Source: Candidatus Nanopelagicales bacterium (GTDB taxonomy: Bacteria > Actinomycetota > Actinomycetes > S36-B12 > UBA10799). Taken from it: a stretch of DNA of 64,000 nucleotides. The translations under genes were made by a program, and so were the position numbers. The notes beneath the pieces were generated by a model that had not been told where the DNA came from, searched no databases, and saw only the letters and a program-made list of their open reading frames with translations. How positions within the stretch are numbered: the first letter of the stretch is position 1; the number at the start of each line of letters is the position of its first letter. The stretch is from assembly GCA_037046735.1 (NCBI GenBank), contig JBAOHC010000021.1, positions 110,025-174,024 on the forward strand. Direction: 5' to 3'. Below are positions 2,465 to 47,610 of this stretch, piece after piece.

Positions 2465-3020
2465 GCCGGGTCACTCATGTCTCGCGTGAGTCGGACCGGA
2501 ACCTCCCGTCATTCCACCCGACGAGCGGGAGTAGACCCCAAACTGTCAGGTCGACCGATCCTGCTGTCAGGTATCCGATGCAAACGGACACACGAGGACA
2601 AACGGCAGGACATGCGGTCTTCAGTCGACTAACGGCGTCCCAAGCGCGCCTGTCCGTGCCCCTGTGTCTCGCTGTTTGTCTCATGGGTTCGCCTGCCTCT
2701 GAGTGAGTGGCAGGCACGGTTGTCGACGAGGCTGAAACCCCGAGTAGCGGCACCTGTCTCCTCGACCGACGTCGATTTCTACAGCCCGACAGAGTCGGCG
2801 CCGTATAGCGTCCGTTGTGAACAAGGGCGGGTCCGAGAACTGGATATGAGCGTTGGGCACGTTTCAGAGCCTGCGACCGCGGTGCCGGGGCTCACGAACA
2901 CGCCGAGTGCTCATCCATGGCCCAGGCAAGCGGCGCCCACTAGTCCTGCGGCACCGGTGCTGGCCAAACCGCGCACGTTCGCCATCACCTCACGTGAGTG
3001 GCTTGTTCACCGGTCGTCGA

Positions 3021-3156
3021 CCACATCTGGTTGACGCCCCACCAAGATCAACCAGATGTGGACAGACACGCCGCAGTTTCTGTCCGAAATGTCCTTTCCC
3101 ACGGCGCGTCGCTGGTTGGGAACGATCGTGAGCGTCGATCTCCCAACCAGATGTGG
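3021..3156. repeat. copy A of a 135-136 bp palindromic MITE-like intergenic element (inverted relative to copy B)
   Basis: Terminal 13-mers are ccacatctggttg (3021-3033) and caaccagatgtgg (3144-3156). An inner copy, caaccagatgtgg (3049-3061), gives a perfect 14-bp hairpin at the left end. The central inverted repeat is gacacgccg/cggcgcgtc (3065-3073 / 3102-3110). The reverse complement aligns along its whole length with 20487-20621. Confidence 0.8.
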
Positions 3157-3341
3157 ACACGAAACCGGGATCACCCCAAACTGGCGCGGAAGCACCGGAT
3201 GTGTTGTGGTCTCACACCCGAGCAAGACCCGCACGGGAGCCCCCTCCCTGCATGTCACACTCGCCCGTCTCCGAACGCACCCAGAGCAGCACACGCCTTG
3301 TGCCATACTCCAGTGCCGGACGCGTCAACCCAGGAGCAGCC

Positions 3342-5258: not shown

Positions 5259-6257
5259 ATGACCCAAAATTCGACCGGGGGTGCTCGCGCCCGCCAATTC
5301 GGAAGAATCGCGGTGGTAGCCACGGTGGGTTTGTGGCCACCGTTGATCGTCGGCCGACTCATCCTGGGGCCACCCGCGATCACGATGCTGCTCTTCGGCA
5401 CTCTGGTCGGCTTCTTGAACACCGCCGCCGCTGGGAGACGGCTGGGAACGGCCGCCACCATCGCCTTCGTCCTCGTCGCTCCCGTGGCCCTCGTGGCAGG
5501 GCAGGACCCGGTTGCCGGCACCTGCCTGATGGCGCTCGGGTGCCTGGCCGTCGGTACCAGCGCCTACTGGCAGCGGTTCAGCGCGTTCAATGTCGGACTG
5601 GCCGGGACTCTGTTCATCGTGGCCTCCCCCGCCGCCACGACCGACCTCCTGGATGGCGGCCCTGCGCAGTCGGAATACCTGCTGGCGGTCCTGTTTGGCA
5701 CCCTGCTCTGCGGGCTGTGGCCGGTGGCGATACTCCCGCTGCTGCACTTCGTAAAGGACATCCCTGCGCAGGCACACCATGAGAAGGCCGAGACGCTTCG
5801 CTACCTCGTGACGATGACGGTCCTCGTGTCTGCGACGACTTTCTACGCGCTGGCCTTCGCGAGGGACTCGAATGGCCTGTGGCTGCCGCTGACCCTGCTC
5901 ATGGTGTTGCAGATCGCGCCGGACACGACGCGGCACCGGGCTTTCCAGCGGGTCTACGGCACCATCGCCGGAGCGCTCACATCAGCCGTAGTGGCGACCG
6001 TGTTCCACGGCACTTGGGTGATCGCTCTGGTCGCCGTCATCGCCTTCCTGGGCGTACTCGCCACCGTGGGCCATCAGCCGTACAGCTACTACGCGTTCTT
6101 CCTGACCGTCCTGGTCCTTTTGGGTGTCTCGGCCACCGAACCGCCATTGGAGGCGAGCATGCAACGCATCATCTACACGGTGATCGGCTGCGCTCTCGCC
6201 TTGACCGCCTACCTGATTGAGCGACCGTTCATCGCCGATCACACGCCGCCGGAATAG
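5259..6257 (+). CDS. FUSC family membrane protein (aromatic-acid-exporter-like)
   Basis: Lies within ORF 5100..6257, with an internal ATG at 5259 (MTQNSTGGARARQFGRIAVVATVGLW...). It has multiple TM helices and the motif DTTRHRAFQRVYGTIAGAL. It is a paralogue of the partial gene at 1..813. Confidence 0.7.
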   Translation: MTQNSTGGARARQFGRIAVVATVGLWPPLIVGRLILGPPAITMLLFGTLVGFLNTAAAGRRLGTAATIAFVLVAPVALVAGQDPVAGTCLMALGCLAVGTSAYWQRFSAFNVGLAGTLFIVASPAATTDLLDGGPAQSEYLLAVLFGTLLCGLWPVAILPLLHFVKDIPAQAHHEKAETLRYLVTMTVLVSATTFYALAFARDSNGLWLPLTLLMVLQIAPDTTRHRAFQRVYGTIAGALTSAVVATVFHGTWVIALVAVIAFLGVLATVGHQPYSYYAFFLTVLVLLGVSATEPPLEASMQRIIYTVIGCALALTAYLIERPFIADHTPPE

Positions 6258-6713: not shown

Positions 6714-6953
6714 GTGAAGAATCTGACCGTGGCCGTTCCCGATGAGGTGTACCGCTTGGCGCGTGTCCGGGCGGCTGAGTCAGGGACCTCAGTAAGCGCC
6801 CTGGTCACCGCCTACTTGAAATCCCTCGCAAGCGGTTCGGCCGAGTTCGATCGCAAAGCTCAACTCCAACGAGATGTCCTCGCGGACGTCACCGAGTTTC
6901 GCGCCGGTGATCGGCTGAGTCGAGAGGAGGTCCACGACCGTGCCGTTCGTTGA
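6714..6953 (+). CDS. ribbon-helix-helix type II antitoxin (VapB-like)
   Basis: GTG at 6714 within ORF 6630..6953: VKNLTVAVPDEVYRLARVRAAESGTSVSALVTAYLKSL, a typical RHH/CopG N-terminus. It overlaps the downstream PIN toxin start by 14 nt. Confidence 0.7.
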   Translation: MKNLTVAVPDEVYRLARVRAAESGTSVSALVTAYLKSLASGSAEFDRKAQLQRDVLADVTEFRAGDRLSREEVHDRAVR

Positions 6954-7347
6954 CACGAACGTTGTGTTGTACGCGGTCTCTACCCATCCATCCGAGGTGT
7001 CGAAGGCGCAGATCGCTCGCACACTCCTCGAGTCTGCGGACATCTGTTTATCCACTCAGGTGCTGCAAGAGTTCTACGTACAAGCCACCCGCCAATCTCG
7101 GCCCGATGCCCTCTCGCGTGATCAGGCCGCGGCGCTCGTCGAGGCCCTCACCAGGTTCTCCGTCCAAGACGTGACTGTCTCGATCGTGCGCGCAGCCATT
7201 CACACGATGAGCCGGTTCAACCTGTCGTACTGGGATGCCGCCATCATCGAGGCAGCCCGTGAGCTGGGCTGCGCGCAATTGCTCTCCGAGGACCTCTCGC
7301 ACGGACAGGACTACAACGGGGTCACGGTCGTGAATCCGTTCCTGTAG
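6940..7347 (+). CDS. vapC: PIN-domain ribonuclease toxin VapC
   Basis: VPFVDTNVVLYA... supplies the first acidic PIN residue. ...QVLQEFY... and ...SYWDAAIIEAARELGCAQLLSEDL match the conserved D/E/D pattern of the VapC family. About 135 aa. Confidence 0.85.
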   Translation: MPFVDTNVVLYAVSTHPSEVSKAQIARTLLESADICLSTQVLQEFYVQATRQSRPDALSRDQAAALVEALTRFSVQDVTVSIVRAAIHTMSRFNLSYWDAAIIEAARELGCAQLLSEDLSHGQDYNGVTVVNPFL

Positions 7348-20010: not shown

Positions 20011-20028
20011 AGTTCCTGCGCGTTTACG

Positions 20029-20474
20029 TTGTGGATCTTGATGTACCCCCTCTGCGCACTCGCCGCGGCCATCGTCGCCGTGGTGATGGCTTTGACGACG
20101 GTGCCCGCAGTCGCCACACCGATCCCGGCACCTCCACGAGTCCCGGATGCCGGCCACGCGCTCTCCGCCGTACATAAGAAGCGCTGCGCCAAGAGGCACC
20201 GCAAGAATCGCACATGCAAGGCGGCTGGTGGGACATCTCCTACTACGACGGCAACGCCGACGGCTGGTACGACGCGATGGGGTTCGACCTGAATCCCATC
20301 GACAACATCATGGACTCCTGGTACTCACTGCAGCAGCCAGTCACCGCGAGCGTCTCCCCGCTCGTCTCGGAGAACGTCGTCACCATGAACCTCATCAGGA
20401 CGCAGGACCCTTGGGCGCAGCGGGACCCATGGGGCACCTGGGCGGGGAATGCTGCCAACGATCCGCTCTACTGA
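20029..20474 (+). pseudogene. small secreted protein split over two frames (apparent frameshift near 20200-20225)
   Basis: ORF 20029..20292 begins with a signal peptide (ATG 20041: MYPLCALAAAIVAVVMALTTVPAVA/TP) and loses coding character after ...KNRTCKAA. ORF 20214..20474 (GGWWDISYYDGNADGWYDAMGFDLN...) is strongly GC3-biased but has no signal peptide or SD of its own. A 1-nt indel would join the two. Confidence 0.4.
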
Positions 20475-20486
20475 CGGGCTAGCCCT

Positions 20487-20621
20487 CCACATCTGGTTGG
20501 AGAACCGGCGAACGAGCGCAATTCCAACCACAGACACGCCGACATTCGGTCATATCGGACACGGAACGCGGCGTGTCCCTGCGCATTTGGTTGATCTTGG
20601 TCGGGTGCCAACCAGATGTGG
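20487..20621. repeat. copy B of the 135-136 bp palindromic MITE-like element
   Basis: Terminal 13-mers are ccacatctggttg (20487-20499) and caaccagatgtgg (20609-20621). The central inverted repeat gacacgccg/cggcgtgtc (20533-20541 / 20569-20577) is a perfect 9 bp. The inner 13-mer copies are degenerate (ttccaacca; gcatttggttg). Confidence 0.8.
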
Positions 20622-20655
20622 CGACAGAATGCGCTTACCCGGGTAGAGGACCCGC

Positions 20656-20775
20656 ATGAGTGAGACATCTCCCAGCTACAGCGCACCGATGCACGACGCC
20701 GACGACCTGCAGTCCGTCGAGGAGCAGTTCGACACCGAACCCGCTGGGACTGTCCCCGTCGACGACGAGGACTGA
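20656..20775 (+). CDS. 39-aa highly acidic small ORF upstream of the HipA-like kinase
   Basis: Below the ORF-track size cutoff. ATG 20656 is preceded by GGTAGAGGA. Sequence: MSETSPSYSAPMHDADDLQSVEEQFDTEPAGTVPVDDED*. Codons are GC3-rich, and it ends 35 nt before the kinase start. Confidence 0.3.
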   Translation: MSETSPSYSAPMHDADDLQSVEEQFDTEPAGTVPVDDED

Positions 20776-34794: not shown

Positions 34795-35034
34795 ACGACA
34801 AGATTCGGTAACGGTCCGGTCACGAAGTCCGGGCTTCAGGGGTAGCAATGCCACGTAGCGGGGCCATCTCGCGGACCTGTGGGGGTCTGGGCGATCCCGT
34901 GACAACCCGAAACAATCGCGGGGAGAATGTGCGGTCGCGAGGGCAATGGGCATTGAAGATCGCTGCCCCTTACATGTGGTTATCCACCACAAAGCACCTG
35001 GTCAGGATAGTTTGTCGTAGCCCTCTCGTACGGT

Positions 35035-36150
35035 GTGGGCATGAACGAATCGGTTGCCGACGCGTGGGAGGCACTGCGCTCCCGGGAAGATCCGCTGGAG
35101 CGGGCGAAAGCGGCGGAGGCGGTGATCGGGTACTGCCACGCCCAACAACTGCGGGCTTTCCATCAGGTGTTCGTGGAGTCCGAACTGGGTGCGGATCCGG
35201 ACGGGGTGGTGGTCGACCCGACCCCGCCGGAGATCGCCTGCGCGATGCTCTGGTCCCCGGGTGCCGCCTCATCGATGGTGGATGTGGCGGTGGACGTCGT
35301 CGAGGACCTGCCAGTGCTGCTGACCGCACTGTCCGACGGCCGGATCGATTTGGCGAAAGTGCGGGAGATCACCCGCGCCACCCTCGGACTTGAACCGGGT
35401 GATCGGCGGGCCCTCGTGGAGCGGGCGATCGACTACGCGGCGACCCGGACCCGGTCGCAGGTGCGGCCGTGGCTGACCCGGCAGGTCGACCGGATCGACG
35501 CCGACGCCGCCGAACGCAGGCGCAGGAAGGCCCGCAAACAGCGGGAGGTGAAACTGATCCCGGAGCCGGATGGCATGGGGACCCTGTCGGCGTACCTGAC
35601 CGCTGAGGAAGCCACTGCCTGTATGAACGCGATCCGGGCGAAGGCGACCAGGATTGCCGGGTCGCGGGATGCCAGCCAGGCCGATGTCTTCATCCACCTG
35701 CTGACCGGGATCGGCGCGGCCGAGCAGGTCCCGATCGCGGTGATCATGACCGACGACGGCGCCGAGATCGAAGGGTACGGGCCGATCGCCGACGGTCACG
35801 CTGATGATCTGCTGCGCCGCCTGGAGTCCCCGTCGGCGATCATCCGGCTGACACCACCGCAGTGTCGGATCGGCTACGCCCCGACGGTCACGATGCGCCG
35901 GTACGTCCAGACCCGCGATCGGCACTGCCGATTCCCCGGCTGCCGCCGGCCCGCCCGCTCCTGCGACCTCGACCACATCGTGCCCTACCCAACCGGCGCG
36001 ACCGACGTGGCCAATCTGCAGGCGTTATGCCGCTACCACCACCGGATCAAAACCCACACCGGCTGGCGGGTGGAACGCGGACCGAACAACACCACCATCT
36101 GGATCAGCCCACGCGGCAAGCGATACACCAGCCGACCCGACGACCCCTAG
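35035..36150 (+). CDS. DUF222-type HNH endonuclease (13E12-repeat-like family)
   Basis: C-terminal block: RDRHCRFPGCRRPARSCDLDHIVPYPTGATDVANLQALCRYHHRIKTHTGW. The N-terminal helical region resembles DUF222. Confidence 0.85.
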   Translation: MGMNESVADAWEALRSREDPLERAKAAEAVIGYCHAQQLRAFHQVFVESELGADPDGVVVDPTPPEIACAMLWSPGAASSMVDVAVDVVEDLPVLLTALSDGRIDLAKVREITRATLGLEPGDRRALVERAIDYAATRTRSQVRPWLTRQVDRIDADAAERRRRKARKQREVKLIPEPDGMGTLSAYLTAEEATACMNAIRAKATRIAGSRDASQADVFIHLLTGIGAAEQVPIAVIMTDDGAEIEGYGPIADGHADDLLRRLESPSAIIRLTPPQCRIGYAPTVTMRRYVQTRDRHCRFPGCRRPARSCDLDHIVPYPTGATDVANLQALCRYHHRIKTHTGWRVERGPNNTTIWISPRGKRYTSRPDDP

Positions 36151-46567: not shown

Positions 46568-46867
46568 CTAGCTCTCATTGGTGGAGGCGCGGGTCAGCGG
46601 CAGCCATTGTGAAAGGTCACTGCGCTCGCCCGAGGCGTCGATGCGGCCCTCCGCCAGGGCCTGCTCCCAGGTGAGCTCTCCGCGGGTCAACGCCAGCCAG
46701 GTAGGCCCGTCGCACTCCACGACCGCTCGTGGGGTTCCCCGCCGGTGCGGGCCACCCGAGATCGCCTGGATGGCACCGTACGGGGGGATGCGGATCTCGA
46801 CTGAGCGGCCGGGGGCCTTCTCCGCGAATGCGGCCAACGCGGCTTTGACCTCCGCCCGCGTGCCCAT
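46568..46867 (-). CDS. sterol-carrier (SCP2-like) family small protein
   Basis: 99 aa, sequence ...VECDGPTWLALTRGELTWEQALAEGRIDASGERSDLSQWLPL. It holds the conserved position near purL seen in actinobacteria (as Rv0807). Confidence 0.65.
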   Translation of the reverse strand: MGTRAEVKAALAAFAEKAPGRSVEIRIPPYGAIQAISGGPHRRGTPRAVVECDGPTWLALTRGELTWEQALAEGRIDASGERSDLSQWLPLTRASTNES

Positions 46868-46917
46868 GGACCCAGGCTAACTCGTGTTCGAAGGTGCTCT
46901 GGGCGGCGATGGGTCTA

Positions 46918-47052
46918 CACATCTGGTTGAGAAGACTGCCCCAAAGACCGTTTGCAACCAGATGTGTAGGACAAATGTCCGTTAAGCCCTGTTTGTACCC
47001 CGCAATTTCTACACATCTGGTTGGCGGTTCCACCCGCTCAACCAGATGTGTA
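46918..47052. repeat. copy C (best preserved) of the 135-136 bp palindromic MITE-like element
   Basis: There are four perfect copies of the 13-mer: acacatctggttg at 46918 and 47012, and caaccagatgtgt at 46956 and 47040. They form two perfect 15-16 bp hairpins and, together, 13-17 bp terminal inverted repeats. The right arm supplies the last codons and stop of the GNAT gene (..GVYTSG*). Confidence 0.85.
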
Positions 47053-47610
47053 GACGCCGCCGCCCAACCGGGTCCGCTGCCGACCATCGGGGTCGAAATT
47101 CGCCGGGTCGAGCCACGCGAGAACCTGCCGGCGCCGGTTGGGCCACTCATGATCAAGCAGGGAGAACCAGGCCGTGTCACGATTGCGGCCATTGACGACC
47201 ATGTGTTGGCGAAACACCCCCTCGAAGGTGAAACCGAAGCGCAGCGCGGCGGCCTTGCTCGCCTCGTTGCGGTTGTCACACTTCCACTCGACCCGACGCG
47301 CACCCCAGTCGAAGAGATGGTCAGCCATCAGCAACACCGCCTCGGTCGATGCCGGGGTTCGGCGCATCTGCGGCCCCCACAGGACATGCCCGATCTCGGC
47401 CACGCGGTTGGGCTCGTCGATCCGCATGATTGCCGCGCGTCCGACCGGCTGGCCGTCGATCAACGCCGCGAAGAACAACGGGTCGTCACTGGTCAGCCCA
47501 TCGTCGAACCAGTCCGGTGAGGCGAACTCGTGCTGGAGGTCGGCCAGCGGCCGGTGTGACTCCTCGATCGGCTCGAGGGTCACGTAACGGCCCCGCAGGA
47601 CTGCCCGCAT
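47038..47610 (-). CDS. GNAT-family N-acetyltransferase
   Basis: Internal ATG 47610 overlaps the purL stop (TGATG). ...IGHVLWGPQMRRTPASTEAVLLMADHLFDWGARRVEWKCDNRNEASKAAALRFGFTFEG. Equivalent position to Rv0802c. Confidence 0.85.
   Translation of the reverse strand: MRAVLRGRYVTLEPIEESHRPLADLQHEFASPDWFDDGLTSDDPLFFAALIDGQPVGRAAIMRIDEPNRVAEIGHVLWGPQMRRTPASTEAVLLMADHLFDWGARRVEWKCDNRNEASKAAALRFGFTFEGVFRQHMVVNGRNRDTAWFSLLDHEWPNRRRQVLAWLDPANFDPDGRQRTRLGGGVYTSG

Follow-up and report, generated by a model that had tools for sequence, protein, structure and literature searches.

Three intergenic sites in the window (the whole 64-kb stretch of DNA analysed here) carry copies of a polar, hairpin-forming repeat of ~140 nt. 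The family is previously undescribed, and a literature search for the 12-mer that makes up its arms returned only eukaryotic primer matches; the class in which we would place it, that of the bacterial REP/BIME-like repeats, is already known. In the reading that we favour, and that we hold to be about evenly poised between right and wrong, these elements belong to the REP/BIME (REPIN-like) kind: intergenic repeats that are structured, non-coding, and restricted to one lineage, with arms recognized in trans. This assignment is favoured over a DDE-type MITE by hairpins that stand alone or in mosaics, by the lack of target-site duplications, by arms that stay invariant as the loops drift, by the siting at gene ends, and by vertical retention that goes along with dispersal.

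Three copies of the repeat in the window

The 12-mer CACATCTGGTTG and its reverse complement occur at nine exact sites in the 64-kb window, against a mean of 0.40 and a maximum of 3 in shuffled sequences, and these sites group into three intergenic clusters with cores of 133–134 nt (3022–3155, 20488–20620, and 46918–47050; Table 1). The original prediction of three intergenic copies of nearly constant length, bounded by inverted ends and not attributable to chance, is borne out by these counts and bounds. The 13-nt inverted ends that it described are indeed inverted arms, but the conserved terminus runs 4–5 nt past the 12-mer, as (G)TCTA / TAGA(C). The copies are 52–62% G+C, compared with ~66% for the host genome and 65.5% for the window. 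The PurL protein encoded in the window is identical to that of the metagenome-assembled genome (MAG) GCA_964268605.1 (“Candidatus Nanopelagicales bacterium”) and is also found on wastewater metagenome contigs; the host is an uncultured actinobacterium of wastewater.

Table 1 Repeat copies, their parts and the genes adjoining copy A in the window, with the parts of the canonical element
Feature	Position	Strand	Description
Exact 12-mer sites	3022, 3049, 3144, 20488, 20609, 46918, 46955, 47012, 47039	both, pooled	exact matching
Element A	46914–47055	+	atypical, four complete arms
Arms of A	46918–46929, 46955–46966, 47012–47023, 47039–47050	+	exact 12-mer
Left hairpin H1 of A	46915–46969	+	15-bp stem (46915–46929 with 46955–46969), 25-nt loop; from sequence and DNA fold
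Central spacer of A	46970–47007	+	motif ATGTCCG(T)TAA; GGACAAATGTCC at 46969–46980
Right hairpin H2 of A	47008–47054	+	16-bp stem (47008–47023 with 47039–47054), 15-nt loop
GNAT (RimJ/RimL-type) acetyltransferase gene	47038–47610	−	190 aa, PF13302/PF00583; 3′ end enters R2 arm of A
SCP_3 (sterol-carrier family) gene	46568–46867	−	51 nt beyond L1 arm of A (46918)
Element B	20484–20624	+	type 1
Parts of B	L1 20488–20499; CAACCAC 20525–20531; CGCATTTGGTTG 20582–20593; R2 20609–20620	+	from sequence
Element C	3018–3159	−	type 1, canonical three-hairpin form
Parts of C	arms 3022–3033, 3049–3060, 3144–3155; 7-mer 3112–3118	given on +	from sequence
Canonical L1	element 5′ end		(G)TCTA-CACATCTGGTTG
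Canonical loop 1	after L1		variable, ~25 nt; ends often lengthen the stem
Canonical partial arm	after loop 1		7-nt CAACCAG, followed directly by CGACACGCC
Canonical centre	after partial arm		~30 nt, semi-conserved, then GGCGTGTC or CGCGTGGCGTC
Canonical L2	after centre		CACATCTGGTTG
Canonical H2 loop	after L2		always 15 nt, starts ATC(A/T)TGGT
Canonical R2	element 3′ end		CAACCAGATGTG-TAGA(C)

Family members beyond the window

The family was sought with an exact-hairpin pattern, requiring both arms to be perfect and the loop to measure 10–40 nt. Among 185,579 species-representative genomes, the only match was a cyanobacterial hairpin with a different loop, and no actinobacterial representative was retrieved. 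This hairpin, at positions 1872–1924 of L001 (Trichormus sp. MAG DVDT01000008.1) and identically at 5869–5921 of L006, joins the same arms, CACATCTGGTTG and CAACCAGATGTG, by a 29-nt loop and is surrounded by DNA of 40% G+C. By chance alone, the genome collection should contain ~0.07 such matches, and the identical 12-nt arms of this hairpin are therefore probably a coincidence. The same pattern yielded 19 stretches in 241 million metagenome records, 17 of them of 63–69% G+C and the other two representing the cyanobacterial sequence. After removal of duplicates and orthologues, the family amounts to ~16 distinct genomic sites: the three in the window and ~13 on metagenome contigs. The original prediction would have been refuted, in favour of a transcription-factor operator, by a lack of further copies together with the same sequence at orthologous loci in relatives; since additional copies exist, this refutation did not come about.

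Alignment of 16 copies defines a canonical element of ~140 nt (Table 1), with a core of 133–136 nt across the family and an L1-to-L2 spacing of 91–97 nt. Its inverted termini measure ~16–17 nt, (G)TCTACACATCTGGTTG / CAACCAGATGTGTAGA(C), of which 12 nt are invariant and 4–5 nt form a semi-conserved extension. Since the R1 covariance model scores the copies at 91–143 bits on one strand and at 22–47 bits on the other, the element is polar. Under the REP/BIME reading, the unit is the hairpin, and in the commonest form three of them follow one another: one with a long loop and a partial 3′ arm, one in the centre, and a perfect one with a short loop.

Two subtypes of the centre can be distinguished, type 1 including window copies B and C and type 2 including most of the metagenome copies. 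The motif GTCCGAWWT lies in forward orientation in all type-2 copies (for example, L009 864–913) and in copy A, and is inverted in all five type-1 copies (window 3061–3111 and 20532–20581 among them). Judging from this distribution, the loop of the central hairpin appears to have been flipped between its inverted stems once in the history of the family. An inversion of the whole centre between the subtypes was also considered and rejected: global alignment (forward 1.8, reverse 0.3) gave no separation, and only GTCCGAWWT is clearly flipped.

Copy A and the end of the GNAT gene

All the structural details originally described for copy A, namely the four arms, the two perfect hairpins, and GGACAAATGTCC in the spacer, are present, with only minor shifts in their bounds. 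It was also taken to be the best copy; alignment against the 15 others makes it instead the atypical, divergent member. It has a full arm on the 3′ side of H1, where the other copies have CAACCAG-CGAC, its centre aligns in forward orientation with the type-2 centre (AATGTCCGATTAACCCGTTTCGCACCGCG), and the S1/S1′ stem is lost. R1 scores it at 104 bits on the plus strand and 47 bits on the minus strand. The element was found in all same-species contigs that were retrieved via PurL and scanned with R1 (L021–L030).

Copy A lies between the 3′ end of the GNAT gene and the 5′ end of the SCP_3 gene. The GNAT gene ends in GGC GGC GTC TAC ACA TCT GGT TGA, and its last five codons and stop fall inside the conserved arm plus arm extension; the proposed overlap of seven codons and the stop thus stands as to overlap and stop, with five codons lying within conserved element sequence. 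GNAT homologues without a hairpin have unrelated C-terminal tails after a conserved RQRxxL. In a relative with 85% identity in GNAT (L031), the stop of that gene is likewise supplied by the arm of a hairpin, here a solo one, and the protein also ends in TSG*. The start of that hairpin loop is homologous to the H2 loop of copy A (AGCGGGTG); in place of copy A and the 170 nt seen in the window, L031 has this single hairpin and a 70-nt spacer. The suggestion that the element supplies the GNAT C-terminus agrees well with these comparisons, in particular with the unrelated tails of the hairpin-free homologues, which indicate that the element has replaced, and in this sense rewritten, the 3′ end of at least this one gene.

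A second gene may contain the element in frame. In L015, a reading frame on the minus strand (673–2217) is open through the element at 1759–1908 (…VYTSGWRAAKINQMCRRR…); upstream of the element it encodes what by eye resembles the C-terminal end of an adenylation domain (…SGKVDRAALL…), and downstream a PP-binding site and an acyltransferase domain. This may represent an in-frame insertion into an inter-domain linker, as seen for the Rickettsia palindromic elements, or it may be fortuitous, as a G+C content of 66% makes stop codons scarce.

Copies B and C

Copy B lies 13 nt after a TGA codon (20472–20474) and 36 nt before the ATG of a 39-aa open reading frame (ORF), and has degenerate inner arms, CAACCAC and CGCATTTGGTTG. 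It scores 116 bits with R1, compared with 125 bits for its equivalent in strain L037, which is closer to the consensus; the two differ by 5–6 changes that lead away from the consensus in copy B. In a 92% relative (L038), only the centre survives at this locus and the arms are gone. Given this decay in both the window and L038, not every copy is maintained.

Two small ORFs lie next to copy B. The 39-aa ORF (20656–20775) is very acidic (MSETSPSYSAPMHDADDLQSVEEQFDTEPAGTVPVDDED) and directly precedes the genes for a HipA_2 kinase and a DUF3037 protein; a 39-residue gene is called at the matching position in both L037 and L038. On the other side, a stretch of ~460 nt (20012–20470), which includes an 86-aa ORF with high third-position G+C, is missing from L038. 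An exact look-up of this ORF found no called gene on record, and the stretch may be a lineage-specific insertion, or the ORF may be no gene at all.

Copy C, located in the intergenic region between the ECF-sigma and AttH genes, scores 127 bits with R1 on the minus strand and folds as H1, a central hairpin, and H2; the inner arm of its left hairpin consists only of the 7-mer CAACCAG. A small G+C-rich hairpin followed by TTTCGT (3165–3179, minus strand) abuts its L1 end. The same hairpin and TTTCGT accompany the copy in L019 (~1563–1585) and are absent from the other copies.

Folding and conservation

Single-strand folding against shuffled sequences gave z-scores of −8.7 for copy A, −5.2 for C, and −4.0 for B, and of −3 to −9 for the copies overall. 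Type 1 copies fold as three hairpins, and the others with a closing L1:R2 stem. One pair at the foot of H2 covaries, being A-T in seven copies and C-G in six, whereas the covariation statistics of the structure as a whole are barely above controls; the stems are conserved in sequence, beyond mere pairing.

Among paralogues, mean pairwise identity reaches 92% in L1, 88% in the 7-mer, 98% in L2, and 99% in R2, as against 34% in loop 1, 35% in the flanks, and 50–68% in the centre. The search pattern demanded perfect L2 and R2 arms, and the high conservation of arms at the loci that it retrieved thus partly reflects ascertainment; no such demand was placed on L1 and the 7-mer. Between orthologous loci, the flanking genes diverge by 19–34% at third codon positions and the loops and centre differ at 35%, whereas the arms not selected by the search show 3 changes in 50 nt, with 12.9 expected from the third-codon divergence (P ~0.001). 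By these comparisons, the arm sequence is evidently kept while the loops drift at approximately the neutral rate. Purifying selection on all arms, for which a figure of 3/122 changes (P ~2e-10) was first obtained, was rejected as an overstatement: the figure is inflated because L2 and R2 are perfect by construction in pattern-retrieved loci, the corrected count is the one given above, and copy B decays.

Sequence constraint of this kind would be accounted for if a trans-acting protein recognized the arm sequence. The likeliest candidate would be a hairpin-binding enzyme of the HUH/RAYT type acting on folded single strands, which would explain why target-site duplications are lacking and why the exact arm sequence, over mere pairing, is preserved. 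We know of no RAYTs established in Actinobacteria, and the more specific proposal that the arms are the recognition sites of a dedicated protein, representing either the first actinobacterial REPIN/RAYT-type partnership, in which a domesticated hairpin-binding HUH enzyme would be paired with its repeat population, or a TRIT-like, sequence-specific factor that would define 3′ ends at sites devoid of canonical intrinsic terminators, is put forward tentatively and with a low probability.

Outside the arms, information content drops to background, near zero, within 4–5 nt. For this reason, a longer element of 160 nt with an inverted terminus of ~28 nt, which the pair formed by copy C and L019 had suggested, was not retained. 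Complementarity between the flanks of individual copies, as would be left by insertion into pre-existing terminator stems or by a longer closing stem, looked convincing by eye for A, L009, and L018, but it was dismissed after a permutation test (mean duplex energy −10.2 vs −9.7 kcal/mol, p = 0.23).

Genomic position

Most copies lie just beyond stop codons, often filling the whole gap between convergent genes, and at nine ends or more the stop codon is 13–16 nt from the nearest arm, in keeping with the terminator-like position that copy A had been predicted to occupy. Two copies (C and L009) are in divergent promoter regions. Orientation relative to the neighbouring genes is unbiased (3 sense, 4 antisense, 4 convergent, and 2 divergent), and the neighbours are functionally unrelated housekeeping and membrane genes, among them those for aspartokinase, MoaA, a NuoD-like protein, a chromate transporter, AIM24, WS/DGAT, AttH, GNAT, and the HipA_2/DUF3037 pair. 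Scans detected no promoter-like sites at the elements and no canonical terminators at the hairpin arms, the loops being 15–25 nt long, the stems ~50% G+C, and no T run following.

This placement would suit a host RNA element, that is, a sequence-conserved, bidirectional 3′-end hairpin kept by selection and acting as terminator, pause site, or mRNA stabilizer in analogy with TRIT, perhaps read by a dsRNA-binding factor and dispersed only secondarily. The spacing to the stop codon fits the footprint of a terminating ribosome, the H2 palindrome works on both strands, and the hairpin at the GNAT stop has been retained across ~32% synonymous divergence. TRIT itself provides a precedent: one M. tuberculosis genome has 147 such conserved, palindromic hairpins, which sit at gene termini and often extend over the stop codon, and their high sequence conservation led to the proposal of a binding factor (PMC3152330). 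We nevertheless regard such a primary role as unlikely. According to PMC3993855, mycobacterial RNA polymerase depends on a U-tract for intrinsic termination, and no U/T tract follows the hairpins; TRITs overlap only 2–4% of mapped M. tuberculosis 3′ ends (bioRxiv 10.1101/2022.06.01.494293). Nor would a 3′-end function explain the two copies in promoter regions or the decay of copy B without replacement; structure alone would not need identical arms at every locus, and a 140-nt polar module of three hairpins exceeds what a terminator needs. Under the REP/BIME reading, copies would remain at gene ends because these places tolerate insertions. A hairpin of 13–17 bp just past a terminating ribosome might in addition serve as a 3′-end barrier or stabilizer for one or both convergent transcripts, a role that, from position alone, is plausible and compatible with that reading.

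The same positional data bear on two further possibilities. A family of genes for structured non-coding RNAs, or else a cis-regulatory RNA of the attenuator or riboswitch type, could exploit alternative pairings (L1:R1′, R1′:L2, and L2:R2), and the helices can indeed be mutually exclusive, as in the two folds described above. However, covariation is barely above controls save for one pair, the elements show neither promoter-like sites nor a preferred orientation, and their neighbours are unrelated. In Rfam, nothing reached the gathering score in the window, and the only matches below it were chance ones of the hairpin type (miRNA precursor models and RNA-OUT, E 0.02–0.8). We consider this possibility very improbable. 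Transcription-factor operators, with repeated CACATCTGGTTG boxes marking a regulon, would account for invariant 12-nt boxes at constant spacing (in the H2 loop and from L1 to L2) and for some retention at orthologous loci, yet most copies are not at promoters but downstream of genes or between convergent ones, and the genes that they flank share no common theme. A copy with 86% identity occurs at an unrelated locus, and arrays and solo hairpins vary between close relatives, all of which renders operators scarcely credible.

Dispersal, turnover, and inferred mobility

Copy C and L019 are the pair just mentioned: they share 86% identity over 160 nt, while the rest of the two loci is unrelated. 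As judged from such unrelated flanks, the family has reached many intergenic locations that are unrelated to one another, and we infer from this that it is mobile; the original view of the repeat as a mobile or REP/BIME-like element accords with the ~16 dispersed sites and with the C-like copy. Relatives at 74–85% protein identity have no copy in the ~55 kb examined, and the family is therefore confined to a narrow clade. Five loci of these relatives (L032–L036) were considered as empty sites and discarded; they lack the elements, but gene order differs or the intergenic DNA is unalignable.

Structural variation is found even between related loci. Where L007 has a single hairpin, L013 carries two full elements separated by 158 nt, and L002 and L014 differ by an indel of ~100 nt bounded by L arms. 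Solo hairpins are present in L007, L017, and L031, and composites or tandem arrays in L003, L013, and L014. Arrays expand and also shrink to solo hairpins or remnants, a behaviour that fits deletions between directly repeated arms.

L009 (630–1300) and L012 are identical over ~700 nt including the element, with substitutions beyond, and the loci overall are ~86.5% identical; this suggests recombination between strains or a chimeric assembly.

Inverted ends, small constant size, dispersed copies without coding capacity, and a near-identical copy at an unrelated locus are also what would be expected of a classical MITE, an internally deleted derivative of a DDE-type insertion sequence that is mobilized in trans via its 16–17-bp inverted ends. 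TA occurs directly outside both 12-mers in 7 of 14 copies, as might be produced by an IS630/Tc1-like element duplicating TA. However, this TA belongs to the palindrome and is found before the internal L2 arm too, and it is therefore no signal of duplication. No k-mer of 3–8 nt is shared at any offset between the flanks, in agreement with the earlier remark that target-site duplications are lacking. Furthermore, the arm occurs three or four times per element, solo hairpins exist, and similarity is sharply mosaic, unlike in the uniform families formed by young MITEs. No HUH/RAYT or other transposase gene was found beside any of the 19 loci or in the 64-kb window, and the search for a transposase with matching inverted ends, by which mobility was to be checked, came back empty: no insertion sequence with these termini was found in the window, the 19 loci, plasmids, phages, or viral contigs, and the plasmids, phages, and viral contigs contained no match to the family at all. 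On balance, a classical MITE seems quite unlikely.

Comparison with known repeats

The REP/BIME/REPIN repeats of Enterobacteria and Pseudomonas, which are mobilized by RAYT (HUH Y1) enzymes, offer the closest set of likenesses on which the REP/BIME reading draws. They too lie outside genes, form hairpins, and are dispersed; they are found singly as palindromes or combined into mosaics with conserved linkers, leave no target-site duplication, are frequent at 3′ ends and between convergent genes, and combine vertical retention at orthologous sites with spread. A foot of the REP/BIME type, CTAC...GTAG, is present in about half the copies of the new family, the others having (G)TCC...GGA(C). The differences are as follows. 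The host is an actinobacterium, and no RAYT gene lies beside the retrieved hairpins. The arms here are perfect repeats of 12–17 bp with long loops, whereas REPs are short imperfect palindromes, and the new family has a partial arm, a central hairpin, and a 15-nt, partly conserved loop (ATCWTGGT). Several points count against the assignment, among them the lack of a HUH/RAYT gene at the 19 loci and in the window, the restriction of the CTAC...GTAG foot to about half the copies, the decay of copy B, and the share of arm conservation that is due to the search pattern. With three copies in the 64-kb window but 19 exact-hairpin stretches in metagenomes and no actinobacterial representative, the copy number looks modest and is apparently far lower than that of classical REPs, which number in the hundreds. 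The two hairpins, moreover, are no simple inverted copies of each other, unlike in REPINs; although the outer arms L1 and R2 are inverted and close a stem in some copies, the element is polar and its halves differ.

TRIT resembles the family in being actinobacterial, lineage-restricted, and bidirectional, and in consisting of a sequence-conserved palindromic hairpin at gene termini that can overlap the stop codon. It is reported as restricted to Mycobacterium (PMC3152330), and it is a single hairpin, whereas the family described here, which matched no Rfam family at gathering score, appears to have another sequence and is usually a module of three hairpins of ~140 nt.

Among MITEs, Correia/NEMIS of Neisseria, RUP/BOX of Streptococcus, and Nezha of cyanobacteria likewise are non-coding, intergenic elements of 100–160 nt with inverted ends and long hairpins, which sometimes extend or truncate neighbouring reading frames. 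These have target-site duplications (TA for Correia) and parent insertion sequences, neither of which was seen here, and the new family further differs by its internally repeated arm and mosaic conservation. PATEs, derived from IS200/IS605, share hairpins of the same polarity near both ends, the lack of target-site duplication, and plausible recognition as single strands. They lack true inverted ends and insert 3′ of a fixed tetra- or pentanucleotide, in contrast to the true inverted ends found here and the lack of a conserved flank beyond 4–5 nt; no TnpA was found at the examined loci.

High-G+C Actinobacteria possess few canonical terminators and, to our knowledge, few repeat families are described for them. 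That a module of hairpins is conserved at gene ends suggests a trans-acting factor worth finding, which could be a mobilizer of the repeat or a marker of transcript 3′ ends. In other respects, the family would add one more ordinary case to a well-known class of bacterial repeats and would not represent a new kind of system. It could be used as a strain-typing marker for the wastewater lineage. At many of the retrieved loci, no more than a few hundred bases separate the copy from the end of its contig, perhaps because assemblies broke at the repeat.

Two further genes of the window deserve mention. An ORF at 35011–36150 (plus strand), with no hairpin arms nearby, contains a DUF222 domain, which we take to form the N-terminus in the actinobacterial REP13E12/HNH-endonuclease repeat family. 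The gene at 6919–7347 (plus strand) encodes a PIN-domain protein, possibly a VapC-type toxin.
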